From the UHGV virus genome UHGV-0341897: 23,469 nt of DNA, one strand, 5' to 3'. This DNA comes from a virus. Below the pieces are notes generated by a model that was not told the origin of the DNA, ran no database searches, and saw only the letters and a list, made by a program, of their open reading frames with translations. Below are positions 1,740 to 20,616 of this stretch, one piece after another; positions within the stretch are counted from its first letter, which is position 1, and every line of letters starts with the position of its first letter. A program made the position numbers and the translations under genes.

Positions 1740-2221
1740 TATTTAGCCCTCACCAGAAAGTTAAATGCAATATTTCGCGGTCTGACAGCAACAAAATTCA
1801 CACCATCACCCACAGAGTTACTGGTGAAATTAAATCGTGAAAATCCTGGCTGATTTCCGGCGATGCCATCATGAAAGTTAATTGCGTGTCCCGCACCTTC
1901 GCCTATATTCCCGGCAAACTGAGAAAAGTTTGTAGCTGCCTGCCAGCTTAATAATTCGCGACCACCATCTGCACCTCGCCCGTCATCCCAGACACGAATG
2001 AAATCACCGCGTGCGTCAGGTAATGCCAACGCCGGAAACACTTTCGCCAGCACAGGGTAATCAGTGGCAGAAAATTTCGCCCCGTTGAACTTCAAAAACA
2101 CCATACTGGACCAGCTGTCGATTACAGTATTTGGCATTGCAGCGGACGCCCAGAAGAACGGAACGCCAATAGCTGGAGCACCTTCTCCCAAACTGCGATG
2201 GCTCACTGCTGATATGTGCAA
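1739..2221 (-). pseudogene. stfE: Side tail fibre C-terminal variable segment (StfE-like), without an N-terminal constant region
   Basis: 160-aa ORF ending ...RNIAFNFLVRAK, a Gly/Asn-rich fibre-tip sequence. The ORF track start is a TTG and no full-length fibre N-terminus lies upstream. This is the alternative module of an invertible-type cassette. Confidence 0.6.
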
Positions 2222-2415
2222 TCGACGGGGAGTTCAGGATCAAGCGATATCGGACTCATCCTCAACACCACCTGATTAATTTGGAGAGCGGGAGAAGGGA
2301 GATGCTACCAGTAGATGATGACGGTTACGGTTCTGCTCCCGCGATATTCGGGGTGATTACTTACATCATTAATGATGCGAGGAACGCGGAGTTTGATGAT
2401 TGTCCGGTGATGTAA

Positions 2416-3084
2416 TCATATTGGCGTTATTAGTTCGGCGCCCTGATTTTTCACATTCCCGACGGCACGCGTTACGGCGTGCCATATAAATTTATCAGCC
2501 GGTACAACACCGTCGGCTGCAATTTCCGCTGCTTCTTTCCCTCCAACATCCTGCCTCATCCATTCACGCGCGGCTTCCGGTAGCAGTACCAGTGGTCGTC
2601 TGTCGTGAATATCAACCAGTCCTTTGTCAGCTGCAGCTGTAACTATCAGGAAACCTTCTGCTTCATCTCCACGTTCGAATGGTGTGCTGCCGATCGCCGC
2701 CATAAAAATCGGCTGACCGTCTGCCCGGTGAATAAAGTAGGGTTGTTTTTGGTCGCCTTCCTTTTTCCACTCATACCATCCATCAGCAAAGCAAATTGCG
2801 CGGCCATGCTGCCAGAGTGGTTTAAACATTCTGCTGGTGGCAGCAGTTTCAGACCGTGCATTAATGAGCGGCGGTTTATCCCACCAACCGGGGGCGTATC
2901 CCCAGATAACTGGATCAAGATGCAACTGCTCATCACGTTCGCTCAGAAGCAGAACTTTTGTTCCTGGCGCTACGTTGAATCTTCCGATGGGTTCTGGATC
3001 GTATGGAATATCGCGTTCTGATTCATCAGCGAGAAGGGCAAGATAATCTTCACGGGTCATTGACTGTGAAAAGCGTCCACACAT
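2416..3084 (-). CDS. yedK: SOS-response-associated peptidase (SRAP; YedK/HMCES family, abasic-site processing)
   Basis: 222-aa ORF starting MCGRFSQ (the catalytic Cys2 signature of SRAP proteins), the same length as E. coli YedK. A GGAGG Shine-Dalgarno sits about 7 nt upstream of the ATG. Confidence 0.85.
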   Translation of the reverse strand: MCGRFSQSMTREDYLALLADESERDIPYDPEPIGRFNVAPGTKVLLLSERDEQLHLDPVIWGYAPGWWDKPPLINARSETAATSRMFKPLWQHGRAICFADGWYEWKKEGDQKQPYFIHRADGQPIFMAAIGSTPFERGDEAEGFLIVTAAADKGLVDIHDRRPLVLLPEAAREWMRQDVGGKEAAEIAADGVVPADKFIWHAVTRAVGNVKNQGAELITPI

Positions 3085-3318
3085 AGAAACCTCCAGCCGT
3101 ATGTCAGACTGAAAGTATAGGGCAGTTAGAAAAAGTGGTGCACACCGTTAAAGATTTAAAAGGAGCATGTAAGGTAAATCGGAATGATGGTTTTGTGAAT
3201 TGATGAATTCCGAAAGTGAAAAAGATACTTAATCATTGTGTGCTAGCGATACGGGGGCAACATTTGACGGGGTTTTTCCCCTGTAATTCCCCATTGCTTC
3301 CCCGTTCAGAAAACAGGC

Positions 3319-3349
3319 AAAAAAACCAGCCGTAACAGGCTGGTTCTTC
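3319..3349 (-). terminator. Rho-independent terminator immediately 3' of the tRNA-like fragment
   Basis: Minus strand reads AACCAGCC-tgttac-GGCTGGTT followed by TTTTTTT. Confidence 0.5.
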
Positions 3350-3358
3350 GAGGATTTT

Positions 3359-3410
3359 TGGTCAGCACGAGAGGATTTGAACCTCCGCCCCCGACACCCC
3401 ATAGCGGTGA
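3359..3410 (-). other. tRNA-Pro-like 3' half (T-arm, acceptor 3' strand and CCA; no 5' acceptor strand) - probable att-site remnant
   Basis: Minus strand reads ...CACCGCTATGGGGTGTCGGGGGCGGAGGTTCAAATCCTCTCGTGCTGACCA. It has a GGTTCAAATCC T-loop and terminal CCA and resembles E. coli proL as recalled from memory. No complementary 5' acceptor strand (CAGCACG) is found upstream. Confidence 0.5.
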
Positions 3411-3598
3411 TCTACCTTCTCATCAAGGGTAACCATGTGCCAGAAGCAGCCCTTGCGCACATTGGATGGGTATCAAATAATGAAGTAGGTCAACTTTATT
3501 AAATAAAATTGTGTTGGTTCAGATGATCGAATGGGAATGAATAGTTTATTACTTTTGGTGACCGCAAGCGCGATCACCTTCGATTTGGTGGCAATTAC

Positions 3599-4567
3599 CT
3601 AGAATGATGCACAATCTTTAAGCTCTTTTTCTAGTTGTTCAACCAAGTCACAGCATTTTTTGATAACATCTTTAACTGACTCTGAATCTAACTTATGAAA
3701 ATTACCATTTTTTGTTTTACCTGCTCGATGAACTAAGTCATGCCTAATTAACACGCTTTTATAAACTTCTGTGAAAACAGGGAATTTAATACCAAAGGTA
3801 TCTCGATACATGCCACTTACTTTTGGCAGATTATGATAAAGAACACTCTTCATAGACTCTATCGCTTGAGACTCTATTTGTTCATGCCTTATAAATAATT
3901 CAGAAAGTAAGAATTTTTCTGTATTGTAATCTTTGAAGGTTTCAACAAAATTTCTCAAATTAGTTTGGCTACCATGAATTAGGGAAATAAATCTGTCACA
4001 TAAATATGTTTCCAAGGAAGTTATTGTATTGGCATATAGCATATACGACATTTGTATTTGTAAAGTGCTATCAATTTTTAACTGAGCATCATTTAGTTTT
4101 ATGGCGTTCTGCATACTATTTTGGAATGTCATATAGACATCTCGTTCAGATAGCGTTCGATCATCAGAGTACTGCATATCAATAACATCTAGAATGCGCT
4201 GTTCAATTAATGAAGGTCTATTCAACTGTAATATATCTATAGTCGCATGTCCTCGCTCAGTTAAACCTTCTAAATATCCATTTTTATTTTGTTTTATATG
4301 TTCTGAAAAACTTTCATTTAAAGGATTTAGAAGTAATGGTTTGCCATTTTCATCGAGAGGAAACTGATCTTTTTTAATCATGCTACATGCCTTACAAGCG
4401 ATGAGCAGGTTGTCTGTAGCATCTTGGAAGTCAGTATACTTTGATTTTGGGAAAAAACGATCAACATCCGCCATCAATGGTTCATAAAGTTTAGTGCCAC
4501 AGTAAGCACATTGATGCTTAAACTTCTCCCATAGTTCAAGTTTAAACGTTTTATAATTCTTATTCAT
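3599..4567 (-). CDS. Orphan HNH-like zinc-finger nuclease-domain protein with a C-terminal helical domain carrying an Rx4HxR (HEPN-like) motif; candidate defence or restriction protein
   Basis: 322-aa ORF in a very AT-rich island. N-terminus has C-A-Y-C ... V-D-R-F-F-P ... D-N-L-L-I-A-C-K-A-C-S-M-I-K-K, an HNH/His-Me finger pattern with Arg where the catalytic His is expected. C-terminus has LIRHDLVHRAG. AAGGAA Shine-Dalgarno lies 8 nt upstream of the ATG. Confidence 0.75.
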   Translation of the reverse strand: MNKNYKTFKLELWEKFKHQCAYCGTKLYEPLMADVDRFFPKSKYTDFQDATDNLLIACKACSMIKKDQFPLDENGKPLLLNPLNESFSEHIKQNKNGYLEGLTERGHATIDILQLNRPSLIEQRILDVIDMQYSDDRTLSERDVYMTFQNSMQNAIKLNDAQLKIDSTLQIQMSYMLYANTITSLETYLCDRFISLIHGSQTNLRNFVETFKDYNTEKFLLSELFIRHEQIESQAIESMKSVLYHNLPKVSGMYRDTFGIKFPVFTEVYKSVLIRHDLVHRAGKTKNGNFHKLDSESVKDVIKKCCDLVEQLEKELKDCASF

Positions 4568-4640
4568 TGAATAGTTCCTTTATATTCTTGACTTGATTGT
4601 TTGTTTGCCAATTTAAGCCAAAGACACACGACTTTAATTG

Positions 4641-4676
4641 GGCTTGAATCATAGTTATATGTAATCTATTAAGCAA
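4641..4676 (-). promoter_or_regulatory. Putative sigma-70 promoter for the HNH-like gene
   Basis: Minus strand reads TTGCTT, a 17-nt spacer, then TATGAT, about 75 nt upstream of the ATG. Sequence-only prediction. Confidence 0.3.
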
Positions 4677-5011
4677 ACACTTTTCATTAATAGCATGAGA
4701 TAACGCTCAATTCTTTATTTTCCGGGAGTGTGTAACTTCATATCCACCTCTCACTCACAGCGTACGTTATTGGCGAAAAATTTAGTTAAGCCATTGATAG
4801 TTTGTGAAAACACGCATGATTTAAAATCCCTTTGCCGTGAAGGGGCTGATAGGTACAGGCACTTGTTTTTGCCCTCTAAAACGGTTATCAAAACCAAAAA
4901 ACATACATTGATAATCAATAGGTTAGGGGAAAGATAAAAGCCAGTTGATTTACAATAAAATTATAGGATTATTTTTATTTATCATGCGGTTGTATATGAA
5001 CCATCTAACTA

Positions 5012-5176
5012 CTGCTGCGCCATATGGGCTGGACTGAAGCCGCAGACCTGATTGTTAAAGGTATGGAAGGCGCAATCAACGCGAAGACCGTAACCTATGA
5101 CTTCGAACGTCTGATGGAAGGCGCTAAACTGCTGAAATGTTCAGAGTTTGGTGACGCGATCATCAAGAACATGTAA
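5012..5176 (+). pseudogene. icd: Isocitrate dehydrogenase 3'-terminal 165-bp segment (icdC-like att homology), not joined to an icd body
   Basis: Translation [54 protein letters not shown] matches the Icd C-terminus. An in-frame TAA lies immediately upstream, and the DNA further upstream is AT-rich and unrelated. Confidence 0.85.
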
Positions 5177-5199
5177 TCTCTACATGTGTTAAATATTGA

Positions 5200-5230
5200 A
5201 ACGGGCGTATAACACGCCCGTTGTTTTATG
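5200..5230 (+). terminator. Rho-independent terminator after the icd 3' segment
   Basis: Perfect 9-bp stem AACGGGCGT / ACGCCCGTT with loop ATAAC, followed by TTGTTTTAT. Confidence 0.65.
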
Positions 5231-5242
5231 ATGATGTAAAAT

Positions 5243-5279
5243 CTTCCCCAAAACTTTCCCCAAAACCCTTCCCCAAAAC
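5243..5279 (+). repeat. Three tandem 12-bp direct repeats (C/T)TTCCCCAAAAC between the att homology and int; candidate integrase arm-type binding sites
   Basis: Direct reading gives cttccccaaaac, tttccccaaaac, c, cttccccaaaac. An imperfect inverted copy (gttaggggaaag) lies near 4922-4935 on the other side of the icd segment. Confidence 0.55.
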
Positions 5280-5289
5280 TGGCTATTTT

Positions 5290-6432
5290 CTATGCTGTTT
5301 TGATATCTACGATAATCCAGTCTTTACCACGATCATCATTGTATCGGTCGGTCATTTTTCTGGATTTATGGCCTAACAACTTTTGCGTATCCAGACCCTG
5401 TTCCCGATATAACCGTTCTGACAGAGATCGCTGCTCATGAAATGTGGGCGCAGTTCCTTGCTCCCATTTTATGCCACATTTTTCCCTGGCCTTTTTAAAA
5501 GCCGTTGTCAGAGTATTCGCAGAAACCTGGTCTCCTCTGTTTGCTTGAGAGGTTGTGTGACGGTAATGGACCAGATATTTACTAACAACAGCATCCCTGC
5601 ACTGAGATATAACTTCACGAAGGGTAATATTCAGAGCATCGCATTTCAGGTTAAGCGGAATAGCAAGTTTTGAACCGGTTTTTTCCTGAGTAATGTGCAA
5701 CATGTCGTCCCAGATATCAGAGAATTTCAAATTGCAGATATCGCCTAAACGTTGTCCAGTGACAAGAGCAAGTAGCATCCCACATTTTAAATAGGGCTGC
5801 CGTCTGCTTACGCTGTCAAATATTGCCTGCCATTCGGGCAGTGATAATCTTTGGCGGTTTACTCGATTTCGCGGTTGTTTTGTTGCCTGCGCTGGGTTAA
5901 ATCCTGGCGGAACATGTCCTGCGTGTTGTGCTTCTTTGAAGACGTCGATTAACACCATTCTCACGACTTGCGCCATCCTGTTATGACCTTCAGCCTTTAC
6001 AGCATCAATTATTTCGGCAATATCAAGTGCGGTAATATCCTTGAGGTGTTGCATTCCACAATGCTCACGGAAAAGACGAATGGGTTTGCCTTTTTGCCGA
6101 TAGGAGTTGGGTCTTAGTTCATTATGTTGCAGCCTGTCCTCCTGGATAGAAATATATTTATCAAGCCATTCTGTCACCGTAATGTCTGAGCGCCTGCCTT
6201 TCATTCTTTCCAGACGCTCATTGACGCTTAATATTTGTCGGGTACGTTGTTCAGCAATAATGATATTTGCTTCAGTAGCAACTTGTTTTGCTTCATTCTC
6301 ATCAGTTCCTAAGCTATGAAAACGACCGGATAGTGGATGTTTGTATTGCCAATATACCTTTCCGGTTCGCTTATCTAATTTGCAATATAAATTGGGTATA
6401 GAGATTTTGTGAGATCGGGGTCTAGCAGCCAT
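5290..6432 (-). CDS. int: Tyrosine recombinase, lambda-family integrase
   Basis: 380-aa ORF whose C-terminus (HEQRSLSERLY ... LLGHKS ... TDRYNDDRGKDW) parallels the lambda Int catalytic region. It is adjacent to the att homology and overlaps xis. Confidence 0.95.
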   Translation of the reverse strand: MAARPRSHKISIPNLYCKLDKRTGKVYWQYKHPLSGRFHSLGTDENEAKQVATEANIIIAEQRTRQILSVNERLERMKGRRSDITVTEWLDKYISIQEDRLQHNELRPNSYRQKGKPIRLFREHCGMQHLKDITALDIAEIIDAVKAEGHNRMAQVVRMVLIDVFKEAQHAGHVPPGFNPAQATKQPRNRVNRQRLSLPEWQAIFDSVSRRQPYLKCGMLLALVTGQRLGDICNLKFSDIWDDMLHITQEKTGSKLAIPLNLKCDALNITLREVISQCRDAVVSKYLVHYRHTTSQANRGDQVSANTLTTAFKKAREKCGIKWEQGTAPTFHEQRSLSERLYREQGLDTQKLLGHKSRKMTDRYNDDRGKDWIIVDIKTA

Positions 6433-6658
6433 CAGCGATTATCCGTTGGAGTTTTGGGTTTGCGTTTATTGGGAGTTGCGGTTCTGCAAGCGTTCCTACA
6501 AAACGGGAATTTCGGTCAATCATCCAGTAGCGACCAACTTTTATAGCGGGTGGGGCCATCATTTTCCCTTGCGCGTATTTTTTCAGAACTCGCTCACTTG
6601 GTGCTAAGTCCCCAAATTCTTCTTTAGCCCAGTCCTGTAAAGTGATTAGTCGAGACAT
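6422..6658 (-). CDS. xis: Excisionase (lambda Xis-type)
   Basis: 78-aa ORF upstream of int and overlapping it by 11 bp. Starts MSRLITLQDWAKEE, similar to lambda Xis MYLTLQEW. Confidence 0.8.
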   Translation of the reverse strand: MSRLITLQDWAKEEFGDLAPSERVLKKYAQGKMMAPPAIKVGRYWMIDRNSRFVGTLAEPQLPINANPKLQRIIADGC

Positions 6659-6797
6659 TTGTCCTCCTCTTAGCTGCTGAGGGAGTTTGTGACCGATATA
6701 TCTGACATGATATTAAGCTCATGGCAGGTACATCTCTTGACTGGTCATAGAGATAAATTTAATGCTGAGAAATGCAGTATTGAATTTATCAATTTTT

Positions 6798-7037
6798 CTA
6801 TTTCCTGCGTATGGCACGTAACTTCTTAATGTGTTCTGCCGTTTCGATCTCTTCTGCTATCCGATCTGCATCAGCTTTATTCACAGGTTCAAAGTCATGA
6901 TTAAAGCGGAACATGCTGGCGATACATGTTCTGCCTTTTCGGATGTAGTGAACTTTGTTGTGGGTAGAACGCAGGATTTTGCAGGGAGTGCCGTGGTGGT
7001 CGACGTACCAGGTGTTAGGAAAAATGATTCTGAACAT
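6798..7037 (-). CDS. Hypothetical early-left (b2/ea-region) protein
   Basis: 79-aa ORF co-oriented with the int-to-exo gene string. No family recognised. Confidence 0.45.
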   Translation of the reverse strand: MFRIIFPNTWYVDHHGTPCKILRSTHNKVHYIRKGRTCIASMFRFNHDFEPVNKADADRIAEEIETAEHIKKLRAIRRK

Positions 7038-7084
7038 TTTTACACCTCAGTTGGACGATGTTGAAATTTGCTGCTTTGAGGCCA

Positions 7085-7303
7085 TCACAGTCCCCATTGT
7101 TTGTTCTTAAGTTCGATCTCCTCCTGGCAACTTGCACAAGTCCGACAACCCTGAACGGCCAGGCGTCTTCGTTCATCTATCGGATCGCCACACTCACAAC
7201 AATGAGTGGCAGATATAGCCTGGTGGTTCAGGCGGCGCATTTTTATTGCTGTGTTGCGCTGTAATTCTTCAATTTCTGATGCTGAATCAATGATGTCTGC
7301 CAT
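7085..7303 (-). CDS. DksA/TraR-family C4 zinc-finger protein
   Basis: 72-aa ORF with C-C-E-C ... C-R-T-C-A-S-C spacing typical of TraR/DksA-type zinc fingers common in lambdoid early regions. Confidence 0.65.
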   Translation of the reverse strand: MADIIDSASEIEELQRNTAIKMRRLNHQAISATHCCECGDPIDERRRLAVQGCRTCASCQEEIELKNKQWGL

Positions 7304-7353
7304 CTTTCATTAATCCCTGAATTGTTGGTTAATACGCTTGAGGGTGAATGCGA

Positions 7354-7379
7354 ATAATAAAAAAGGAGCCTGTAGCTCC
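7354..7379 (-). terminator. Rho-independent terminator downstream of the 93-aa ORF
   Basis: Minus strand reads GGAGC-tacag-GCTCC followed by TTTTTTATTATT. Confidence 0.5.
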
Positions 7380-7401
7380 ATGATGATTTTGTTTTTCATG
7401 T

Positions 7402-7683
7402 TCACCGTTCCTTAAAGACGCCGTTTAACATGCCGATCGCCAGGCTTAAATGAGTCGGTGTGAATCCCATCAGCGTTACCGTTTCGCGGTGCTTCTTCAG
7501 TACGCTACGGCAAATGTCATCGACGTTTTTATCCGGAAACTGCTGTCTGGCTTTTTTGATTTCATAATTAGCCTGACGGGCAATACTGCGAAGGGCGTTT
7601 TCTTGCTGAGGTGTCATTGAACAAGTCCCATGTCGGCAAGCATAAGCACACAGAATATGAAGCCCGCTGCCAGAAAAATGCAT
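7402..7683 (-). CDS. Hypothetical early-left protein (possibly starting at internal Met23)
   Basis: 93-aa ORF in the gene string between exo and xis. No family recognised. Confidence 0.45.
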   Translation of the reverse strand: MHFSGSGLHILCAYACRHGTCSMTPQQENALRSIARQANYEIKKARQQFPDKNVDDICRSVLKKHRETVTLMGFTPTHLSLAIGMLNGVFKER

Positions 7684-7693
7684 TCAGTGGTTG

Positions 7694-7885
7694 TCATACC
7701 TGGTCTCTCTCATCTGCTTCTGCTTTCGCCACCATCATTTCCAGCTTTTGTGAAAGGGATGTGGCTAACGTATGAAATTCTTCGTCTGTTTCTACTGGTA
7801 TTGGCACAAACCTGACTCCAATTTGAGCGAGGCTATGTGCCATCTCGATACTCGTTCTTAACTCAACGGGAGATGCTTTGTGCAT
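7694..7885 (-). CDS. Hypothetical early-left protein
   Basis: 63-aa acidic ORF co-oriented with the operon. Confidence 0.4.
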   Translation of the reverse strand: MHKASPVELRTSIEMAHSLAQIGVRFVPIPVETDEEFHTLATSLSQKLEMMVAKAEADERDQV

Positions 7886-8046
7886 ACAGCCCCTCGTTTA
7901 TTATTTATCTCCTCAGCCAGCCGCTGGGCTTTCAGTGGATTTTGGATAACAGAAAGGCCGGGAAATACCCAGCCTCGCTTTGTAACGGAGTAGACGAAAG
8001 TGATCGCGCCTACCCGGATATTATCGTGAGGATGCGTCATCGCCAT
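7858..8046 (-). CDS. Hypothetical early-left protein
   Basis: 62-aa ORF immediately downstream of exo in the same orientation, overlapping its neighbours. Confidence 0.35.
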
Positions 8047-8717
8047 TGCTCCCCAAATACAAAACCAATTTCAGCCAGTGCCTCGTCCATTTTTTCGATG
8101 AACTCCGGCACCATCTCGTCAAAACTCGCCATGTACTTTTCATCCCGCTCAACCACGACATAATGCAGTCCTTCACGCTTCATACGCGGGTCATAGTTGG
8201 CAAAGTACCAGGCATCTTTTCGCGTCACCCACATGCTGTACTGCACCTGGGCCATGTAAGCCGACTTTATGGCCTCGAAACCACCGAGCCGGAACTTCAT
8301 GAAATCCCGGGAGGTAAACGGGCATTTCAGCTCAAGGCCATTGCCGTCACTGCATAAACCATCGGGAGAGCAGGCGGTGCGCATACTTTCGTCGCGATAG
8401 ATGATCGGGGATTCAGTAACATTCACGCCGGAAGTGAATTCAAACAGGGTTCTGGCGTCGTTCTCGTACTGTTTTCCCCAGGCCAGCGCCTTAGCATTAA
8501 CTTCCGGAGCCACACCGGTGCAAACCTCAGCCAGCAGGGTGTGGAAGTAGGACATTTTCATGTCAGGCCACTTCTTTCCTGAGCGGGGCTTTGCTATCAC
8601 GTTGTGAACTTCTGAAGCGGTGATGACGCCGAGCCGTAATTTGTGCCATGCATCATCCCCCTGTTCGACAGCTCTCACGTCGATCCCGGTACGCTGCAGG
8701 ATAATGTCCGGTATCAT
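8037..8717 (-). CDS. exo: Lambda exonuclease (Red-alpha)
   Basis: 226-aa [42 protein letters not shown]..., essentially the lambda Exo sequence as I recall it. Its start overlaps the bet stop (ATGA). Confidence 0.97.
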
Positions 8718-9499
8718 GCTGCCGCCTTCTGCTCAGTGGCTTTCTGTTTCAGGAATCCAAGAGCTTTCACTGCTTCGGCCTGTGTCAGTTCTGACGATGC
8801 GCGAATGTCGCGGCGAAATATCTGGGAACAGAGCGGCAATAAGTCGTCATCCCATGTTTTATCCAGGGCGATCAGCAGAGTGTTAATCTCCTGCATGGTT
8901 TCATCGTTAACCGGAGTGATGTCGCGTTCTGGCTGACGTTCTGCAGTGTATGCAGTATTTTCGACAATGCGCTCGGCTTCATCCTTGTCATAGATACCAG
9001 CAAATCCGAAGGCGAGACGGGCACACTGAATCATGGCTTTATGCCGTAACATCCGTTTGGGATGCGACTGCCACGGGCCGGTGATTTCTCTGCCTTCGCG
9101 GGTTTTGAATGGTTCGCGGCGGCATTCATCCATCCACTCGGTAACGCAGATCGGATGATTACGGTCCTTGCGGTAAATCCGGCATGTACAGGATTCATTG
9201 TCCTGCTCAAAGTCCATGCCATCAAACTGCTGGTTTTCATTGATGATGCGGGACCAGCCATCAACGCCCACCACCGGAACGATGCCGTTCTGCTTATCAG
9301 GGAAGGCGTAAATTTCTTTCGTCCACGGATTAAGGCCGTACTGGTTGGCGACGATCAACAATGCGATGAACTGCGCATCGCTGGCATCGCCTTTAAATGC
9401 TGTCTGGCGAAGAGTGGTGATCAGTTCCTGTGGGTCGACAGAATCCATGCCGACACGTTCAGCCAGCTTCCCTGCCAGCGTTGCGAGTGCTGTACTCAT
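8714..9499 (-). CDS. bet: Lambda Bet single-strand annealing protein (Red-beta)
   Basis: 261-aa [62 protein letters not shown]..., matching lambda Bet from memory. Confidence 0.97.
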
Positions 9500-9504
9500 C
9501 CGTT

Positions 9505-9801
9505 TTATACCTCTGAATCAATATCAACCTGATGGTGAGCAATGGTTTCAACCATGTACCGGATGTGTTCTGCCATGCGCTCCTGAAACTCAACATCGTC
9601 ATCAAACGCACGGGTAATGGCTTTTTTGCTGGCCCCGTGGCGTTGCAAATGATCGATGCAGAGTGATTCAAACAGGTGCTGGGACAGACCCTTTTCCATG
9701 TCGTCTGCCAGTTCTGCCTCTTTCTCTTCACGGGCGATCTGCTGGTAGTGACGTGCCCAGCTCTGAGCCTCAAGACGATCCTGAATGTAATAAGCGTTCA
9801 T
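9505..9801 (-). CDS. gam: Gam, RecBCD inhibitor (98-aa GamS-length form)
   Basis: [42 protein letters not shown]... matches lambda GamS. An in-frame TAA lies 19 codons upstream of the ATG, so no GamL-type extension is possible. Confidence 0.95.
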
Positions 9802-9876
9802 GGCTGAACTCCTGAAAATGGCTGTGAAAATATCGCCCGCGAAATGCCCGGCTGATTAGGAAAACAGGAAAGGGGA

Positions 9877-10287
9877 TTAGTGATTGAGGCCGTTACCGCG
9901 TCCGTCGAGAAAAACTTCCACGAGCAAATCACGGGTATAAGTGCGCTCGATGCCGCGATGCAGATAAAGCCGTCCGCGTAAATTAGCTGATGCAGTCCAG
10001 GTACCATCTTTGTGTTTGACCAGCATTCCTGGCATGACCGCACCTCGATTAACGGTCTGCGTTCCGTAATGTTGATGAACCATAAAAACTCCTGCCCGTA
10101 AGCTGGGCTGCTGAACATATAGAGACTTCTGCGCGTATTCAGGCGGTGGATGGCCGCCGGTTGTCATAACTAAGCCGCCTCGTTGAAGCGACTGAGGTAT
10201 GAGGTGTTGAGTTGATTTCAGCTGGTCACACCGACGTTCACGCGTCCGCTTCACCCCTCGCACTCCCCGGAGCCTGCTGAAATTCAA
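9877..10287 (-). CDS. Hypothetical first gene of the leftward operon, with an arginine-rich N-terminal segment
   Basis: ORF track start is a TTG. N-terminus [10 protein letters not shown] resembles the lambda N arginine-rich motif, but the rest is unlike N. An internal ATG at 10167 would give a 96-aa product. Coding status is uncertain. Confidence 0.4.
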
Positions 10288-10353
10288 GCTGCGGATCTAA
10301 GCGGTCATCGCAACGGTGAATCAGGTGATTGCCGTATCGTTGTGTTGTTGCGA

Positions 10354-10405
10354 CATGGTGATAATAGCTATTGCTATTGACTATATCAATACTTATTGCT
10401 ATTGA
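10354..10405 (-). promoter_or_regulatory. Putative pL promoter with overlapping operator-like repeats (oL)
   Basis: Minus strand reads TTGATA, a 17-nt spacer, then TATTAT. The 17-bp inverted repeat TATTGACTATATCAATA and two copies of ATTGCTATTGA overlap it. Confidence 0.45.
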
Positions 10406-10529
10406 TTGATGTGTTTTGATATTAACTGTTTGATAGCAAAAAGAATTAATTTTGTGACTTGCATCGCATAGCGATAACTGAAGCGAGGTCGTGGTGGTTT
10501 TTTGAACGGTTTATGTGATGAGGGGAGGC

Positions 10530-10557
10530 AAAAGAAAACCCGGCACGACGGCCGGGG
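10530..10557 (-). terminator. Rho-independent terminator 3' of the 287-aa gene
   Basis: Minus strand reads CCCGGCC-gtcgt-GCCGGG followed by TTTTCTTTT, directly after the stop codon at 10561-10563. Confidence 0.55.
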
Positions 10558-10560
10558 AAA

Positions 10561-11424
10561 TCATTTCGCATCTACAATAAATAACCTGTTTATCTGGCCT
10601 TTTTTAACAGTAGCCTTTGCGGTTATAGTGAATACTGCAGATGGATCACCTTTGGTTGATATATATGCACTAAGAGCTCTAATATACGGGTTATTCTTCT
10701 TTCCTGCAGCTGGATCGCTAATTTCAGCAGTGATTCTCTTTTTTGAGTCATCACCATCTAAAATTATTTTAGCTGTCATATTTTGTGCATCAAATTCTGT
10801 AAGAAAAGCACGATACTCACGAAGACCGAGAACTTCATCATCATCAAGCCTATCAATTTCAGCTTTATCTCTCTCGTTAACTTTTAGAAGGCAGCCGTCA
10901 ACATTTGTTGCAACACTTATCTGATCGCAAGTATTACCAATAGGTGATACTGCCTGCCTTACAGAGGGGCGAAGCTCTACAGCCATTCGGTCAATCAAAG
11001 AGATCAACTTATCAATGGTTCCAGCATCCTTGTTTCCTAGTGCCTCTATGGCCTTTTCAAGTGACTGCTGCAAAGCTTTCATTTCATCTTTCTTGTTAGA
11101 ATTTCTCGCAAAAATATATTGTAGTATTGCGCCAAGTATAGTTGCGGCGATCCCCGAGAACAACTGGTTCTGAGTGGCGAAGTTAAGAACTGCTTCAAGA
11201 GTAAAGCAGTTAGCTTTTGCTTCGCGTGCGTAAACCTTAACTTCCTGATAATTAATGTATTTACTATATTTTTGTGTAACAGAGAAAGAAGCTGCTGTTG
11301 AGAGAACTTTAGAAAAACCCTTTAGGGATTCTCCTAGGCAGTTCAAATCTATTTCATGATTTAAAGCATCTTTTCCGTCATACCTAAGAGAGATTTTTAT
11401 ATCCTGTAAAGCGTCACAATCCAT
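10561..11424 (-). CDS. Uncharacterised 287-aa protein at the rexAB-equivalent position downstream of cI; candidate exclusion or abortive-infection protein
   Basis: Long AT-rich ORF 66 bp downstream of cI and co-oriented with it, ending at its own terminator before oL/pL. Contains one hydrophobic helix ([19 protein letters not shown]) followed by a charged coiled-coil-like stretch. No family recognised. Confidence 0.75.
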
Positions 11425-11490
11425 AAATCGCTCTCGTCTAATTCTAATTAAATTTACTATCCCCTAAACGACTCATCAGCACAGTACTGA

Positions 11491-12183
11491 TTATCCATGT
11501 TTCCTGTACGTCTGGGGCATGCTCCCAATAACCTTACCGAAGATGAACACCCGGTTCATCTCGTCTTTCTCGATCGGGTCCCACGGTGAGTAGCTCTTGT
11601 TATCAGAGATAACCAGCAGCTTATCCTTCATCATTTGCAGGCGCTTTACATGGGCGGTGTCGTCGTACAGAAACGCATAGATGCCATCACCGTCGAAAGA
11701 TTTAACCGTGATATCAACGAACAGAAGATCACCAGGTTCAATCGTTCCTGACATGCTGTCACCGCGTACGTTAATGATGCGGATATTTTCTGCCTTCCTA
11801 CCATCGAACATGTGACGAGCATCGTCAAACGAGTACTCAACCGAGCGTAGAACTTCTACAAACTCACGGTTGATGACTCCCGGCCCGGCACTCACTTCTA
11901 TATCAAGAACGTCAATCTTGAAGTATTTGGGATGGTTGGCAGTAGGCTTCCCTAATTGTTGACCGTCATTTCTCATCGGGCCTATGCCTGATGAGAGCCA
12001 CTCTGTTCGAACACCCAATGCATTAGCTATTTCAACAATTTTTGTTGAGCCGCGCGCGTTGCCGCTTGTCAGTCTCCAGATTGTGGGTTGAGCTACGCCA
12101 GACGCCTTTGCAAGAGCGCCTTGAGACATTCCAGATTGTTCCATCGCTAGGTTTAAGCGATCAGCAAGAGTTTCTTTTTTCAT
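11491..12183 (-). CDS. cI: Prophage repressor, cI-type (HTH-XRE plus LexA/S24-like autopeptidase domain)
   Basis: N-terminal helix-turn-helix (QGALAKASGVAQPTIWRL) and C-terminal S24 peptidase signatures (GDSM ... VKR). Start placed at the ATG for MKKETL (12183); the ORF track begins at an upstream TTG (12219). Divergent from cro. Confidence 0.9.
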   Translation of the reverse strand: MKKETLADRLNLAMEQSGMSQGALAKASGVAQPTIWRLTSGNARGSTKIVEIANALGVRTEWLSSGIGPMRNDGQQLGKPTANHPKYFKIDVLDIEVSAGPGVINREFVEVLRSVEYSFDDARHMFDGRKAENIRIINVRGDSMSGTIEPGDLLFVDITVKSFDGDGIYAFLYDDTAHVKRLQMMKDKLLVISDNKSYSPWDPIEKDEMNRVFIFGKVIGSMPQTYRKHG

Positions 12184-12293
12184 AAGTTTTAATTTATACG
12201 CTTGCGTATTGATGGTCAAAACACGTTTTGCTATTGCTGTGATTAATACGCATTGCTATTATTTATTCATTGTAATACCAATAGGAATTAATA
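12184..12293. promoter_or_regulatory. oR/pR/pRM-type divergent control region between cI and cro
   Basis: Contains the 14-bp inverted repeat ATACGCTTGCGTAT, two TTGCTATT-core repeats shared with the oL region, and a plus-strand TTGCTG, 17-nt spacer, TATTAT promoter about 30 bp upstream of cro. Confidence 0.55.
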
Positions 12294-12521
12294 ATGACAA
12301 ATCAAACCATTCAACTCGCAATCAGTATTACAGGTAGTCAAAAACGACTGGCAGATCTATGCGGTGTAGCCCAGCCCACTGTTTGGCGTTGGCTACACGG
12401 TGGCGGAATTGATGCCCGCTATGTAATGAAAATTGTCTCAGCCACTGGTGGAAAGATTAAACCAGCAGATATTCGTCCCGACCTCGCACCATTGTTTAAC
12501 GCGAGTAATTCTGCCGCCTAA
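12294..12521 (+). CDS. cro: Cro-like HTH regulator (YdaS-type)
   Basis: 75-aa ORF divergent from cI with HTH segment QKRLADLCGVAQPTVWRWL and an AGGAA Shine-Dalgarno. Confidence 0.8.
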   Translation: MTNQTIQLAISITGSQKRLADLCGVAQPTVWRWLHGGGIDARYVMKIVSATGGKIKPADIRPDLAPLFNASNSAA

Positions 12522-12545
12522 TCTGCGGCGTTAACTGATAAGGCA

Positions 12546-13091
12546 ATGACTATGCAACCACTTACATACCAACAGACTAGCGGATTTAGCCCGACTGCGG
12601 TGATAAATCGTTCTCAAACAAAACAGGCGCCAGGCCACGAAAAAATCCGTGATGCCGTTCGCGCCTGGTCGGCTGCAGATAATCAGGATGTTGTTGCCGC
12701 ACTCATTGTGAATGAGTATCGGGAGCAGGGCGGCGGCACCATCGATTTCCCTGATGATGTCAGCCGTGCACGCCAGAAGCTGTTCCGCTTCCTCGATAAC
12801 AAATTCGATTCTGAAAAATACCGAAATAACGTGCGTGAACTGACCCCGGCAATTCTGGCGGTACTACCGCTGGAATATCGCGGCCACCTGGTTGAGCAGG
12901 ATAGCTTCATGGCTCGGCTGGCTGAAATGGAAAAGGAACTCAGTGAGGCAAAACAGGCTGTCATTCTCAACGCACCACGCCACCAGAAACTGAAGGAGAT
13001 GAGTGAAGGCATTGTGTCGATGTTTCGTGTGGACCCGGATCTGGCTGGTCCACTGATGGCGATGGTCACCACCATGCTGGGGGCAATATGA
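12546..13091 (+). CDS. CII-position regulator (possibly YdaT-family)
   Basis: 181-aa ORF between cro and O. Assigned by position only; YdaT-like identity is a guess from memory. Confidence 0.5.
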   Translation: MTMQPLTYQQTSGFSPTAVINRSQTKQAPGHEKIRDAVRAWSAADNQDVVAALIVNEYREQGGGTIDFPDDVSRARQKLFRFLDNKFDSEKYRNNVRELTPAILAVLPLEYRGHLVEQDSFMARLAEMEKELSEAKQAVILNAPRHQKLKEMSEGIVSMFRVDPDLAGPLMAMVTTMLGAI

Positions 13092-13177
13092 CAGGTTCGG
13101 AAATGGCGAAAGCCGGTCTGCGCGAACAGAACCGACTTTCAGGTGCAAATCGTAACACACTCATTGCGGGAGGAATT

Positions 13178-14107
13178 ATGGCAAACACTGCTGAGATATT
13201 CAATTTTCCAGTGCCGGATGTGGCACAAAAGGAGCCGCGCGTGGCAGATCTCGATGATGGTTATACGCGCATTGCAAATGAGTTGCTGGAAGCTGTGATG
13301 CTGGCCGGATTAACACAGCACCAGCTTCTGGTCTTCCTGGCTGTCATGCGCAAAACATATGGCTTTAATAAAAAACTGGATTGGGTGAGCAACGAGCAAC
13401 TTTCCGAGTTGACCGGGATATTGCCGCACAAGTGTTCTGCTGCAAAAAGTGTTCTGATAAAGCGTGGGATTTTTATTCAGAGCGGGCGGAATATCGGCAT
13501 TAATAATGTGGTCAGTGAATGGTCAACATTACCCGAATCAGGTAAGAAAAATAAAGTTTACCTGAAAGAGGTAAATTTACCTGAATCAGGTAAGAAAAGT
13601 TTACCCAAATCAGGTAAAGACGTTTACCCGAATCAGGTAAACACAAAAGACAAACTAACAAAAGACAATATAAAACCTTTTTCGTCCGAGAATTCTGGCG
13701 AATCCTCTGACCAGCCAGAAAACGATCTTCCTGTGGTGAAACCGGATGCTGCAATTCAGAGCGGCAGCAAGTGGGGGACAGCAGAAGACCTGACCGCCGC
13801 AGAGTGGATGTTTGACATGGTGAAGACCATCGCGCCATCAGCCAGAAAACCGAATTTTGCAGGGTGGGCTAACGATATCCGCCTGATGCGTGAACGTGAC
13901 GGACGTAACCACCGCGACATGTGTGTACTGTTCCGCTGGGCATGCCAGGACAACTTCTGGTCCGGTAACGTGCTAAGTCCGGCCAAACTCCGCGACAAGT
14001 GGACCCAACTCGAAATCAACCGTAACAAGCAACAGGCTGGCGTGACAGCCGGAAAATCAAAACTCGACCTGACAAACACTGACTGGATTTATGGGGTGGA
14101 TTTATGA
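13178..14107 (+). CDS. O: Replication initiator, lambda O-like (origin-binding)
   Basis: Start at MANTAEIFNFPV with a GGGAGG Shine-Dalgarno; the ORF track extends to 13088. Has the lambda O N-terminal motif VADLDDGY, internal iterons, and a C-terminus overlapping P. Confidence 0.9.
   Translation: MANTAEIFNFPVPDVAQKEPRVADLDDGYTRIANELLEAVMLAGLTQHQLLVFLAVMRKTYGFNKKLDWVSNEQLSELTGILPHKCSAAKSVLIKRGIFIQSGRNIGINNVVSEWSTLPESGKKNKVYLKEVNLPESGKKSLPKSGKDVYPNQVNTKDKLTKDNIKPFSSENSGESSDQPENDLPVVKPDAAIQSGSKWGTAEDLTAAEWMFDMVKTIAPSARKPNFAGWANDIRLMRERDGRNHRDMCVLFRWACQDNFWSGNVLSPAKLRDKWTQLEINRNKQQAGVTAGKSKLDLTNTDWIYGVDL
13529..13641 (+). repeat. Replication origin iterons: five copies of about 19 bp (TTTACC-N7-GGTAA) inside O, followed by an AT-rich stretch
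   Basis: Direct reading gives ttacccgaatcaggtaag, tttacctgaaagaggtaaa, tttacctgaatcaggtaag, tttacccaaatcaggtaaa, tttacccgaatcaggtaaa. The AT-rich tract cacaaaagacaaactaacaaaagacaatataaaacc follows at 13642-13680. Confidence 0.8.
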
Positions 14108-14805
14108 AAAACATCGCCGCACAGATGGTTAACTTTGACCGTGAGCAGATGTGCCGGATCGCCAATAACATGCCGGAACAGTACGACGAAAAGCCGCAGG
14201 TACAGCAGGTAGCGCAGATCATCAACGGTGTGTTCAGCCAGTTACTGGCAACTTTCCCGGCGAGTCTGGCTAACCGGGACCAGAACGAACTGAACGAAAT
14301 CCGCCGCCAGTGGGTTCTGGCTTTCCGGGAAAACGGGATCACCACAATGGAACAGGTTAACGCAGGAATGCGCGTAGCCCGTCGGCAGAATCGACCATTC
14401 CTGCCATCACCCGGGCAGTTTGTTGCCTGGTGTCGGGAAGAAGCATCCGTTACCGCCGGGCTGCCAAACGCCAGCGAGCTGGTTGATATGGTTTACGAGT
14501 ATTGCCGGAAGCGTGGCCTTTATCCGGATGCAGAGTCTTATCCATGGAAATCAAACGCGCATTACTGGTTGGTTACCAACCTGTATCAGAACATGCGAGC
14601 CAATGCGCTGACTGACGCGGAATTACGGCGCAAGGCTGCCGATGAACTGACCTGTATGACAGCGCGAATTAACCGTGGTGAGGCTATACCTGAACCAGTA
14701 AAACAAATTCCTGTCATGGGCGGTAGACCTCTAAATCGTGCACAGGCTCTGGCGAAGATCGCAGAAATCAAAGCTAAGTTTGGGCTGAAAGGAGCAAGAG
14801 TATGA
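14104..14805 (+). CDS. P: Replication protein P (DnaB helicase loader), lambda-like
   Basis: 233-aa ORF MKNIAAQMVNFDREQMCRIANNMPEQYDEKPQVQQVAQIINGVFSQLL..., near-identical to lambda P as I recall it. Confidence 0.97.
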   Translation: MKNIAAQMVNFDREQMCRIANNMPEQYDEKPQVQQVAQIINGVFSQLLATFPASLANRDQNELNEIRRQWVLAFRENGITTMEQVNAGMRVARRQNRPFLPSPGQFVAWCREEASVTAGLPNASELVDMVYEYCRKRGLYPDAESYPWKSNAHYWLVTNLYQNMRANALTDAELRRKAADELTCMTARINRGEAIPEPVKQIPVMGGRPLNRAQALAKIAEIKAKFGLKGARV

Positions 14806-15104
14806 CGGGCAAAGAGGCAATTATTCATTACCTGGGGACTCATAAGAACTTCTGTGCGCAGGACGTTGCCGCGGTAACAGGCGCAACCGTAACCAGCATA
14901 AATCAGGCTGCGGCTAAAATGGCGCGGGCAGGAATCCTGGTCGTTGATGGTAAGGTCTGGCGAACGGTGTATTATCGGTTCGCTACCAGAGAAGAACGGG
15001 AAGGAAAGGTGAGCGCGAATTTGATTTTTAAGGAGTGTCGCCAGAGTGCCGCGATGAAACGGGTATTGAGGGTATATAAAAGAACATCAATGGGTACACA
15101 ATGA
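14802..15104 (+). CDS. ren: Ren (Rex-exclusion protection protein)
   Basis: 100-aa ORF MTGKEAIIHYLGTHKNFCAQDVAAVTGATVTSINQAAAKMARAG..., matching lambda/DLP12 Ren from memory. Confidence 0.9.
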   Translation: MTGKEAIIHYLGTHKNFCAQDVAAVTGATVTSINQAAAKMARAGILVVDGKVWRTVYYRFATREEREGKVSANLIFKECRQSAAMKRVLRVYKRTSMGTQ

Positions 15105-15171
15105 TGAAACAGGTGAGTTGAGTTCAAACTGTAGTACAATTCTCTCCAGTTTGAACAGGAAAGAATATGCT

Positions 15172-15504
15172 ATGAACCCTTATATTTATCTTGGTGGTGC
15201 AATACTTGCAGAGGTCATTGGTACAACCTTAATGAAGTTTTCAGAAGGTTTTACACGGTTATGGCCATCTGTTGGTACAATTATTTGTTATTGTGCATCA
15301 TTCTGGTTATTAGCTCAGACGCTGGCTTATATACCTACAGGGATTGCTTATGCTATCTGGTCAGGAGTCGGTATTGTCCTGATTAGCATACTATCATGGG
15401 GATTTTTCGGCCAACGGTTGGACCTGCCAGCCATTATAGGCATGATGTTGATTTGTGCCGGTGTGTTGGTTATTAATTTATTGTCACGAAGCACACCACA
15501 TTAA
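15172..15504 (+). CDS. emrE: Small multidrug resistance efflux transporter EmrE
   Basis: 110-aa product from Met19 of the ORF track entry (MNPYIYLGGAILAEVIGTTLMKFSEGF...), with four hydrophobic helices. Matches E. coli EmrE, known from DLP12. Confidence 0.95.
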   Translation: MNPYIYLGGAILAEVIGTTLMKFSEGFTRLWPSVGTIICYCASFWLLAQTLAYIPTGIAYAIWSGVGIVLISILSWGFFGQRLDLPAIIGMMLICAGVLVINLLSRSTPH

Positions 15505-15759
15505 AAATAATTTATTTTTAAACGACTAAAATATGGAGGTTCGTATATTTGTATGGGCCTCGTTTTATGCTTTTTGTTAATGTCTTTAGTTTTTATTCAT
15601 TCTTTTGAACTTTCAAGATTATGGTGTAAGAAAATTGCAATACGATTATTGTTGTATATTCAAGATAATGTGACCTTAATTGTCTTTTTAAATAAAAATT
15701 AAACAAAAATCATATCTCACCACTAAGGTTTATAAAAGCATACTTTAGCAGGTGTCACC

Positions 15760-17286
15760 ATGAAAAAAGCCATAGCATATATGCGATTTTCATCACCAGG
15801 TCAGATGTCTGGTGATTCATTAAACCGCCAGAGAAGGCTTATTACTGAATGGCTAAAGGTAAATAGTGATTATTACCTTGATACCGTAACGTATGAAGAT
15901 TTGGGGTTAAGCGCATTCAATGGAAAGCATGCACAATCAGGAGCTTTTTCGGAATTTTTAGATGCTATAGAACATGGTTACATATTGCCAGGGACTACAT
16001 TGTTAGTTGAAAGTCTGGACAGACTTTCAAGAGAAAAAGTCGGTGAAGCGATTGAGCGTCTGAAATTGATTTTGAATCACGGTATTGATGTTATAACTCT
16101 TTGCGATAATACAGTCTATAATATAGACTCATTGAATGAGCCATATTCATTAATAAAAGCCATACTTATAGCACAAAGGGCAAATGAAGAAAGCGAGATA
16201 AAGTCAAGTCGGGTTAAATTATCATGGAAGAAAAAACGGCAGGATGCACTGGAATCAGGCACGATTATGACGGCGTCTTGTCCGAGATGGCTCTCATTGG
16301 ATGACAAAAGAACAGCTTTTATTCCAGACCCCGACAGGGTGAAAACGATTGAGCTAATTTTTAAACTCAGGATGGAAAGGCGATCATTGAATGCAATAGC
16401 TAAGTATTTAAATGATCATGCTGTAAAAAATTTTTCAGGAAAAGAAAGTGCATGGGGGCCTTCTGTAATTGAAAAATTATTAGCGAATAAAGCTCTGATA
16501 GGTATATGCGTACCTTCATATCGTGCAAGAGGGAAAGGGATAAGTGAAATCGCTGGCTATTATCCCAGAGTCATATCAGATGATTTGTTTTACGCTGTAC
16601 AGGAAATTCGGTTGGCACCTTTTGGTATTAGCAATAGTAGCAAGAATCCTATGCTAATAAATCTACTTCGAACAGTTATGAAGTGTGAGGCTTGTGGTAA
16701 TACCATGATTGTTCATGCGGTATCTGGACGTTTGCATGGCTATTATGTTTGTCCGATGAGAAGATTACATCGATGTGACAGGCCATCAATAAAAAGAGAT
16801 TTGGTTGATTATAATATCATTAATGAATTGCTTTTTAATTGTAGCAAAATTCAACCAGTTGAAAACAAGAAAGATGCTAATGAAACTTTAGAGTTAAAAA
16901 TTATTGAGCTTCAGATGAAAATTAATAATTTAATCGTTGCATTGTCTGTCGCGCCTGAAGTTACCGCTATAGCAGAGAAAATAAGACTATTAGATAAGGA
17001 ATTACGAAGGGCTTCGGTATCATTAAAAACTTTGAAGAGTAAAGGGGTGAGTTCACTTGGTGATTTTCATGCTATTGATTTAACTAGTAAAAATGGGCGA
17101 GAGCTATGTCGTACACTTGCCTATAAAATATTCGAAAAAATTATAATTAATACAGATAATAAAACCTGTGATATCTATTTTATGAATGGCATTGTTTTTA
17201 AACACTATCCTTTAATGAAAGTAATATCCGCCCAGCAGGCGATAAGCACTCTTAAATATATGGTTGATGGTGAGATTTATTTTTGA
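15760..17286 (+). CDS. ybcK: Large serine recombinase (resolvase/invertase-type catalytic domain; YbcK-like)
   Basis: 508-aa ORF with the N-terminal serine-recombinase motif AYMRFSSPGQ and a cysteine cluster (C-E-A-C ... C-P-M ... C-D) typical of the zinc-ribbon region. Flanked by AT-rich non-coding DNA. Confidence 0.85.
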   Translation: MKKAIAYMRFSSPGQMSGDSLNRQRRLITEWLKVNSDYYLDTVTYEDLGLSAFNGKHAQSGAFSEFLDAIEHGYILPGTTLLVESLDRLSREKVGEAIERLKLILNHGIDVITLCDNTVYNIDSLNEPYSLIKAILIAQRANEESEIKSSRVKLSWKKKRQDALESGTIMTASCPRWLSLDDKRTAFIPDPDRVKTIELIFKLRMERRSLNAIAKYLNDHAVKNFSGKESAWGPSVIEKLLANKALIGICVPSYRARGKGISEIAGYYPRVISDDLFYAVQEIRLAPFGISNSSKNPMLINLLRTVMKCEACGNTMIVHAVSGRLHGYYVCPMRRLHRCDRPSIKRDLVDYNIINELLFNCSKIQPVENKKDANETLELKIIELQMKINNLIVALSVAPEVTAIAEKIRLLDKELRRASVSLKTLKSKGVSSLGDFHAIDLTSKNGRELCRTLAYKIFEKIIINTDNKTCDIYFMNGIVFKHYPLMKVISAQQAISTLKYMVDGEIYF

Positions 17287-20531: not shown

Positions 20532-20616
20532 AGTCAGAGATAACAATCGACTAATACTGTTTTGTTGATTTTTGCTTGTAATTGGCGTTCTGGCCTAATT
20601 TTTGTGGAGTAAGTTG

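Follow-up and report, generated by a model that had tools for sequence, protein, structure and literature searches.

Morons, a concept said to stem from Hendrix and colleagues, the b region of lambda and the hotspots of P2 and P4 follow a common plan, in which conserved flanks enclose cargo, accessory or defensive, that is interchangeable and lies beside the attachment (att) site, this cargo being of atypical composition and organised in self-contained transcription units. The e14 element of Escherichia coli K-12, integrated at icd, ends on the right in the order stfE/tfaE - pinE - mcrA - icd', after which iraM follows. Prophage and satellite hotspots are known to hold defence systems (Rousset et al. 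2022, PMC9122126). One question then is how the right arms of related elements are assembled, and here we consider positions 2222-5011 of a viral DNA stretch of 23,469 nucleotides, UHGV-0341897 (the window, by which we mean the whole of this stretch). We argue that this interval is very probably the att-proximal accessory or 'moron' arm of a defective e14-family prophage, which stands at icd in tandem with a phage-21-like lambdoid prophage, and that this arm was first built up in layers and then eroded.

The window begins inside ymfQ, of which the 3' end is present, and continues with the constant part of the tail-fibre gene stf; the two come from an e14-family element whose baseplate is Mu-like, and both are 97% identical to K-12 e14. 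K-12, HS-01, 82.0311 and GE3 share the left flank (1-464) at 96-98% identity, and similarity to other e14-type elements stops at 464. On the right, comparison of the icd elements places the start of the fixed flank at 4767-4876 and not at 5011: the AT-rich arm of the icd-type att site is 91.8% identical from 4767 in an unrelated icd prophage of PCP07014, is conserved from 4876 in 82.0311, and in K-12 e14 is represented by 4878-4919 plus 5002 onward. The window and K-12 e14 thus have in common the backbone, an invertible cassette with pix sites, the att arm, icd' and an att-proximal nuclease, whereas the window lacks both pin and mcrA, continues into a second prophage instead of iraM, and holds in the slot between its flanks a umuD remnant, an SRAP gene, a fossil att site and a cassette encoding an HNH-HEPN protein.

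A first-pass annotation, made from the letters of the sequence, had described the interval as an AT-rich stretch with three unrelated items, an SRAP gene, a tRNA fragment with its terminator and an HNH-like gene, differing in composition and orientation. The items themselves are real (an intact SRAP gene, a tRNA 3' fragment with a terminator and an HNH-type open reading frame, ORF), and by ORFs and Pfam no invertase or integrase gene is present in 2222-5011, as had been noted. The inventory was, however, incomplete at one end and too generous at the other, since a umuD/humD-like remnant at 2193-2415 on the plus strand was passed over and 4767-5011 is att arm and not cargo. Nor do the orientations differ, all three items lying on the minus strand, and while the HNH cassette is indeed a separate entity, SRAP, terminator and tRNA piece are one block of 978 bp. 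The composition is likewise uneven: the AT-rich part extends over 3417-5011 (GC 0.32-0.41), whereas 2193-3416 has a GC content of 0.49 compared with 0.48 in the fibre backbone, such that a distinct composition can be attributed to the cassette (GC 0.32, with 0.26 at third codon positions of its ORF) and the att arm, but not to the SRAP block (GC 0.49-0.51). The interval is nonetheless a mosaic, its pieces having different nearest relatives.

The largest of these pieces connects the arm with phages of another integration site. Positions 2442-3416 form a single colinear block of 978 bp that is 93.5% identical to the end of the prophage of strain GE3, a complete e14-family element residing at the chromosomal tRNA-Pro gene (proL) beside yejM, whose right arm reads pinE - DUF3037 - HipA-like kinase - DinI - UmuD - UmuC - SRAP - terminator - tRNA-Pro. 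Similarly, the isolated temperate phages Flotzy and Eeyore have the order fibres - (invertase) - DinI - UmuD-like gene - same core with its terminator - integrase. The first layer of the arm would accordingly be the right arm of an e14-family, Eeyore-like phage integrating at proL, in the order pin - dinI - umuD(C) - SRAP - terminator - att core, an origin shown, at the level of sequence, by colinearity.

In this context the 'tRNA fragment' acquires a different meaning. Its 46-nucleotide (nt) core, spanning tRNA-Pro(GGG) from the anticodon loop to CCA, is invariant save for one indel and one substitution in a multiple alignment of the GE3 tRNA-Pro gene, attL and attR, the attP of Flotzy and Eeyore, both copies in the related strain fEC.1, the fragment in UTI89 and the window; the terminator is kept in the GE3 attL, the attP of Flotzy and Eeyore, and UTI89. 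The piece is not a functional tRNA: ARAGORN and Rfam call none in the interval, where Rfam returns two chance-level hits only, and no complete cloverleaf can form, the 5' part GGTTACC being unable to pair with the 3' strand CGTGCTG. In Flotzy and Eeyore the shared core adjoins the integrase, as befits a proL-type att site. Within 3359-5011, however, there is no integrase that could use the core at 3359-3404, the next one being of icd type and belonging to the neighbouring prophage. Because no cognate integrase adjoins it, the core is a fossil, namely the attachment site of a proL-integrating relative that was left in the arm when an icd-type module was gained. The old att survives as an internal relic of the element's former mode of integration. 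No second copy of the fossil and no other long repeat is found in the window.

Compared with the proL phages GE3, Eeyore and Flotzy the arm is therefore alike in its colinear order from pin through dinI, umuD(C), SRAP and terminator to the att core. It differs in that their core is a working att followed by the integrase or by the body of the tRNA gene, while that of the window is internal, with a foreign cassette and then an icd-type att behind it; moreover, umuC is missing from the window, and its truncated umuD comes from another source. A similar relic is present in prophages at a third site. UTI89 (locus L005, 4001-4085), like over 100 further E. coli genomes, carries an 84-nt stretch of tRNA-Pro core plus terminator inside an e14-family prophage at ssrA, with a decayed dinI on one side of it and a PD-T4-3-like GIY-YIG gene on the other. 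Because the ssrA prophages also hold core and terminator, the fossil att recurs in the e14 phage family.

The pieces to the left of the fossil are left over from a DNA-damage module. The umuD/humD-like remnant, the 3' part of an S24 peptidase gene, is 99.8% identical to the 3' part of a frameshifted 'S24 family peptidase' gene in fEC.1 and 87.5% identical to the HumD gene that adjoins the att arm in the unrelated icd prophage PCP07014; judged by these relationships it is of a source other than the SRAP block. The SRAP gene is intact, its product matching PF02586 (6.8e-51 over 1-211 of 214 profile positions) and PRK09951 (6.4e-140, 464 bits, over 1-222), beginning with MCGRF, and retaining the motifs of the family as well as Cys2. 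Abasic sites in single-stranded DNA are shielded by proteins of the YedK type, and from its family membership the SRAP protein is predicted to cross-link covalently to such sites. The gene probably benefits the lysogen as part of a module for the SOS response and DNA-damage tolerance. The idea that SRAP and the HNH-HEPN protein act as a pair was rejected, the HNH-HEPN cassette occurring without SRAP in five other contexts.

The later history of the arm is best followed by comparison with fEC.1, which is the best match and is 99.4-99.9% identical apart from two deletions. The fEC.1 slot reads fibre cassette - pin - dinI - small fragment - umuD (frameshifted) - SRAP - att fossil - 261-aa ORF - att fossil - HNH gene - icd'. 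Since these nearest relatives have the same cargo with pin still on its left, the missing invertase of the window is a secondary loss. Of the earlier proposal that the cargo replaced both pin and mcrA, the part concerning the mcrA position therefore stands, whereas pin was removed later by a deletion of 1.5 kb. This first deletion (D1, 1,502 bp relative to fEC.1) took pin, dinI and the 5' part of umuD. The second (D2) is the absence of 1,169 bp that fEC.1 holds between two direct repeats, each a 121-bp copy of the att fossil, and presumably arose by deletion between these repeats. Erosion of the arm would thus have comprised the loss of the invertase region and of the 1.17-kb inter-repeat segment. 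In fEC.1 itself (locus L001, 7788-9077) the two 121-bp fossil copies flank an AT-rich ORF of 261 amino acids without a family match, a segment possibly left over from another integration event, this time at the fossil itself.

Deletion D1 also affected the tail-fibre switch. Inverted repeats at 452-468 and 2177-2193 delimit the invertible fibre/tfa segment. Of its two pix sites the left one is undamaged, while alignment with both fEC.1 parents and a BLAST junction (1-2193 / 2193-3404) show the right pix site to be truncated. A switch of the Pin/Din type has two inverted 26-bp sites and an invertase gene; with pin gone and 11 nt of the right site remaining, the inversion switch is frozen, and the only expressible fibre variant is that of 160-744. 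The D1 junction consists of TTCTCCCAAAC followed directly by TGCGATGG, its left parent being the right pix site TTCTCCCAAACC AA CGTTTATGAAAA, and it joins two unique sequences with an overlap of 1 nt only. Din-family invertases cleave at the central dinucleotide of the crossover site. Reportedly, Iida and Hiestand-Nauer described in the 1980s quasi-site recombination and deletions brought about by invertases of this family (Cin, Gin and Pin). At 1 nt from the core at which Pin cleaves the right pix site, the left breakpoint of D1 suggests an origin in a Pin-made break or in aberrant recombination by Pin. The resemblance to known deletions by Din-family invertases extends to this end, within 1 nt of the cut dinucleotide; unlike them, D1 has a partner that is not pix-like and a junction that is 1 nt off, and the gene for the enzyme was lost in the event. 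Clean recombination at a quasi-site (pseudo-pix) is not claimed for D1.

To what extent is the slot itself variable? The comparison over icd-site prophages which the first-pass annotation had proposed bears out its view of a variable hotspot assembled by successive recombination, the content differing widely between the same flanks. At icd the e14 slot holds mcrA in K-12, nothing in HS-01, a PD-T4-3 gene (2.4e-140) plus an mcrA fragment in 82.0311, and dinI-umuD-SRAP-att fossil-ORF261-HNH/HEPN in the fEC.1 type, while a different, non-e14 icd prophage, that of PCP07014, has gtrABC-humD at its att-proximal position. Elsewhere in the same phage family the corresponding content is DUF3037-HipA-DinI-UmuDC-SRAP at proL and DUF262-dinI-att fossil-GIY-YIG at ssrA. 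There are thus conserved flanks on both sides, four different contents between the flanks of icd-site e14 elements, and cargo that includes known or candidate defence genes. In a screen of 5,426 complete E. coli genomes the cargo of the window was found in 8 and its exact arrangement in none; neither the D1 nor the D2 junction occurs in any of them. The slot behaves as a classic moron or att-proximal defence hotspot, and in this sense is a known kind of region, which differs from the P2/P4 hotspots in that it also holds a fossil att site. In the literature searched we found no description of the pin-to-att slot of e14 elements as a defence hotspot.

In the window the place taken by McrA or PD-T4-3 in other e14 elements is filled by the HNH-HEPN gene, which encodes a protein of 322 amino acids with a PtuB-type HNH domain at the N-terminus and a HEPN domain at the C-terminus. 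Among 19 homologues of 38-83% identity the residues C20/C23, C58/C61 and R275-H276-D277..H280-R281 are invariant and H37 is conserved in at least 90%; the AlphaFold model has a mean predicted local distance difference test score (pLDDT) of 81, and the C-terminal part shows the helical fold and the conserved R-x4-6-H motif of HEPN domains. The family-profile matches fall short of their thresholds, NCBIfam PtuB giving 32.7, far below the cut-off of 150, and the Pfam RiboL-PSP HEPN match of the protein itself remaining below threshold (E 0.011). Cassette and interval contain no PtuA ATPase, no retron reverse transcriptase (RT) or multicopy single-stranded DNA (msDNA), and no partner of the antitoxin or MNT kind, and the small ORFs in the untranslated parts of the cassette are all shorter than 42 amino acids. 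Because a PtuA partner is lacking, the gene is not a Septu system. From PtuB of Septu and the HNH effector of type I-A retrons (Ec78/Eco7) it differs in the lack of PtuA, RT and msDNA and in the fusion of HNH to HEPN, and from the HEPN RNase toxins (HEPN-MNT, RnlA/LsoA, Csm6) in having neither an antitoxin nor an MNT partner, its RNase activity being predicted. Nor is it McrA: the interval has no similarity to mcrA of K-12 e14, the PADLOC match to mREase_IV (2.3e-11) being one of HNH at the domain level.

A defence function has been predicted for fusions of HEPN with endoDNase domains (Anantharaman et al. 2013, PMC3710099), and no paper on the combination of RiboL-PSP with HNH was found in the literature searched. 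The neighbourhoods of the homologues, often integrase-proximal, contain type I restriction-modification systems, AAA_15/21, Mrr, retron, NACHT, SIR2-HerA and GAPS4 genes, and homologues occur also in a superintegron-like array of Vibrio. The HNH-HEPN protein is thus most likely a single-gene anti-phage nuclease, as predicted from domains and gene neighbourhoods. In two homologous loci of 65-67% identity (L115 2933-3871, L021 6930-7868) a 312-aa ORF without assigned function directly precedes the gene, which hints at a two-gene form of the system without a counterpart in the cassette of the window.

The gene is carried by a cassette with defined ends, which forms what would be the second layer of the arm, an AT-rich insertion of 1.33 kb placed between the fossil att and the working icd-type att arm. 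This gap it nearly fills, the tRNA gene being expected to start at 3435 and the homology of the att arm beginning at 4767. With the same end nucleotides and at 83-86% identity the cassette recurs in five other contexts, six with the window, the flanks of which are unrelated: a P4-like satellite of Serratia; a lambdoid prophage of Enterobacter, directly after umuDC; an island of Proteus that also holds a retron and a NACHT gene; a position beside an integrase of P4 type, where an IS256-family element truncates the 3' end; and a P1-sized viral contig of 96.7 kb (IMG/VR, L110 100-1560), beside a Cre-like recombinase gene. No cassette contexts were found in phage and plasmid collections and no further ones in two metagenome pattern scans; species-representative genomes contained mostly HEPN-only relatives, and more distant homologues share the coding sequence alone, so that their borders are not comparable. 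The cassette is, then, a discrete unit, which presumably entered the arm from outside. In L110 its ends form an imperfect terminal inverted repeat of 27 bp (23/27 matches, not reached in any of 500 shuffles), extending 11-15 nt past the common boundary, and two other copies retain diverged traces of it. Searches at the cassette borders for target-site duplications, integron attC-type ends and dif-like ends gave nothing consistent. An observation from another genus concerns the same unit: in a Proteus-like sequence (IMG/VR, L108 5325-6558) the cassette lies 2.6 kb from an icd'-like sequence (9157-9247, 80% identity), in an orientation relative to it that is opposite to that in the window. Another genus thus also carries the cassette in an icd-associated element.

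Transposase-less elements with terminal inverted repeats are familiar as mobile insertion cassettes or miniature inverted-repeat transposable elements (MITEs) in the usage of ISfinder. It is tempting to regard 3435-4761 as such a unit, a transposase-less mobile cassette bounded by inverted repeats and carrying a predicted single-protein defence system, which would hop among the att-proximal slots of prophages, P4-like satellites and P1-like phage-plasmids across the Enterobacterales. We hold this extension to be rather doubtful. A passenger gene with fixed ends and the 27-bp repeat of one copy are as in mobile insertion cassettes or MITE-like elements, whereas no target duplication was seen, no cognate transposase was identified, and the window copy has no outer repeat. 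The L110 repeat can be read equally well as the result of insertion into a palindromic target.

Several observations weigh against the reconstruction given above. The 5' side of the fossil (3405-3434) resembles a degenerate tRNA body and not the P arm of Flotzy and Eeyore, and because of this tRNA-body-like character descent via attP and descent via an attL-type junction are both possible. The right partner of the D1 junction offers no convincing pix-like half-site (4 of 12 positions match), and with the junction 1 nt off the canonical exchange point the involvement of Pin hangs on one breakpoint. Deletion D2 could equal an assembly collapse of the 121-bp repeat instead of a biological event. 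The survey of the hotspot took in about ten loci and is not a census. With regard to the HNH-HEPN gene, the PADLOC matches to PtuB are at the domain level only and a PtuA partner is lacking; the defence role is a predicted one. Finally, the window cassette does not have the outer L110 repeat, and its own ends score below shuffled sequences, giving no significant repeat.

How, then, do other explanations fare? On the earlier annotation's version SRAP, tRNA fragment and HNH gene were each inserted separately, displacing pin and mcrA. The variability of the slot and a compositionally foreign HNH cassette with boundaries of its own are in keeping with this, but the colinearity of SRAP, terminator and tRNA piece with the end of a proL-integrated relative, the one strand they share, the presence of pin beside the cargo in the nearest relatives and the deletion scar inside a pix site together make it improbable. 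An independent mobile island or satellite occupying 3359-5011, with the tRNA fragment as its mark and the HNH gene as its cargo, is a second alternative, tRNA 3' fragments being typical borders of islands; two copies flank a 1-kb segment in fEC.1, and HNH homologues often stand beside integrases. Such an island is nevertheless hardly credible, for 3359-5011 contains no integrase, excisionase or replication gene, the window has a single copy of the fragment, this copy is continuous with the SRAP arm just as in a phage attP or attL, and the cassette has the same ends in contexts devoid of a tRNA-Pro fragment.

The remaining alternatives concern parts of the arm. The HNH-HEPN gene could be a selfish element, either a homing-type nuclease or an addiction toxin, in which case the cassette would be spreading for itself. 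HNH nucleases are common as homing enzymes, the ends are identical in six contexts, with a terminal inverted repeat in one, and no immunity or antitoxin gene is visible. Homing, however, needs homologous flanks, which differ in all contexts; in addition the N-terminal domain is closest to PtuB defence effectors, the C-terminal domain retains the HEPN RNase motif, and the neighbours are overwhelmingly defence genes, such that a selfish role appears unlikely. Alternatively, the lack of pin and the single att fossil could be an assembly artefact of an fEC.1-type locus, the D2 state being just what collapse of a 121-bp direct repeat by a short-read assembler could produce, and neither junction being known from a complete genome. 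Yet repeat collapse cannot yield D1, which joins unique sequences with a 1-nt overlap at a biologically meaningful site, and the remaining sequence is 99.4-99.9% colinear with fEC.1; an artefact of this kind we consider to have little probability. The preferred reading is thus still that of a layered and subsequently eroded accessory arm.

Taken in this way, the interval is a worked example of how the cargo arm of a prophage is built, with a fossil att, a foreign cassette between the old and the new att, and decay by deletions, one of which seems to begin at the invertase's own cleavage site. The current view of prophage evolution is left unchanged. In practical terms, the pin-to-att slot of e14 elements can be flagged for defence-gene searches, since mcrA, PD-T4-3 and the HNH-HEPN gene are found there, and the HNH-HEPN cassette is one compact and easily cloned candidate. 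The cassette, with its fixed ends across six mobile-element contexts, is also the only part with some novelty. The coordinates of the arm and of its surroundings are collected in Table 1.

Table 1. Features in and around the att-proximal arm, with the basis of each assignment.
Feature	Position	Strand	Basis or remark
Left pix crossover site, intact, CTCTCGAAAACC TT GGTTTGGGAGAA	437-462	+	Inverted repeat and sequence reading
Truncated right pix site, 11 nt of inner half-site TTCTCCCAAACC remaining	2183-2193	+	Deletion D1 junction
umuD/humD-like S24 peptidase gene, 3' remnant (44-aa ORF 2281-2415)	2193-2415	+	BLAST
SRAP (YedK-type) gene, intact, 222 aa	2416-3084	-	Pfam PF02586 and NCBIfam PRK09951
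Rho-independent terminator downstream of the tRNA-Pro fragment, phage arm of att	3320-3349	-	Terminator scan
tRNA-Pro(GGG) 3' part, 46-nt core 3359-3404, about 58 nt in all	3359-3416	-	Alignment
AT-rich cassette, 1,327 bp (194 nt upstream, ORF, 164 nt downstream)	3435-4761	-	Shared ends
322-aa protein, N-terminal PtuB-like HNH (about 1-157), C-terminal HEPN (about 165-320)	3599-4567	-	ORF
AT-rich arm of icd-type attachment site	4767-5011	+	245 nt; conserved flank, not cargo
icd 3' fragment (ORF 5024-5176) and terminator 5200-5222	5012-5229	+	Pfam Iso_dh C-terminus; terminator scan
Lambda-type integrase of next lambdoid prophage, outside cargo	5290-6432	-	Pfam Arm-DNA-bind_1 and Phage_integrase

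To the right of the arm the icd fragment constitutes a hybrid att where the two tandem prophages meet, being matched in all E. coli genomes and, just ahead of int, in the genomes of phage-21-type phages. The integrase is followed by an excisionase and by lambdoid early genes, a stretch that has 99.6% identity with phages 4A7, 3W and 21, which integrate at icd, and E. coli 82.0311 has the same order of e14-type right end, icd' and lambdoid int. Three direct repeats of about 12-13 nt (5238-5280; AAAAC(T/C)TTCCCCAAAAC), which may be arm-type binding sites of the integrase, stand in the space that separates the icd' terminator from the integrase gene's 3' end. The rest of the window, 5230-23469, is the second lambdoid prophage in tandem at icd and includes a DLP12-like accessory block with an SMR/EmrE-type pump (15118-15504), a large serine recombinase of 508 amino acids (15760-17286), a BD-FAE esterase (17636-18679, minus strand), RusA (20032-20394) and a porin (21189-22331, minus strand).

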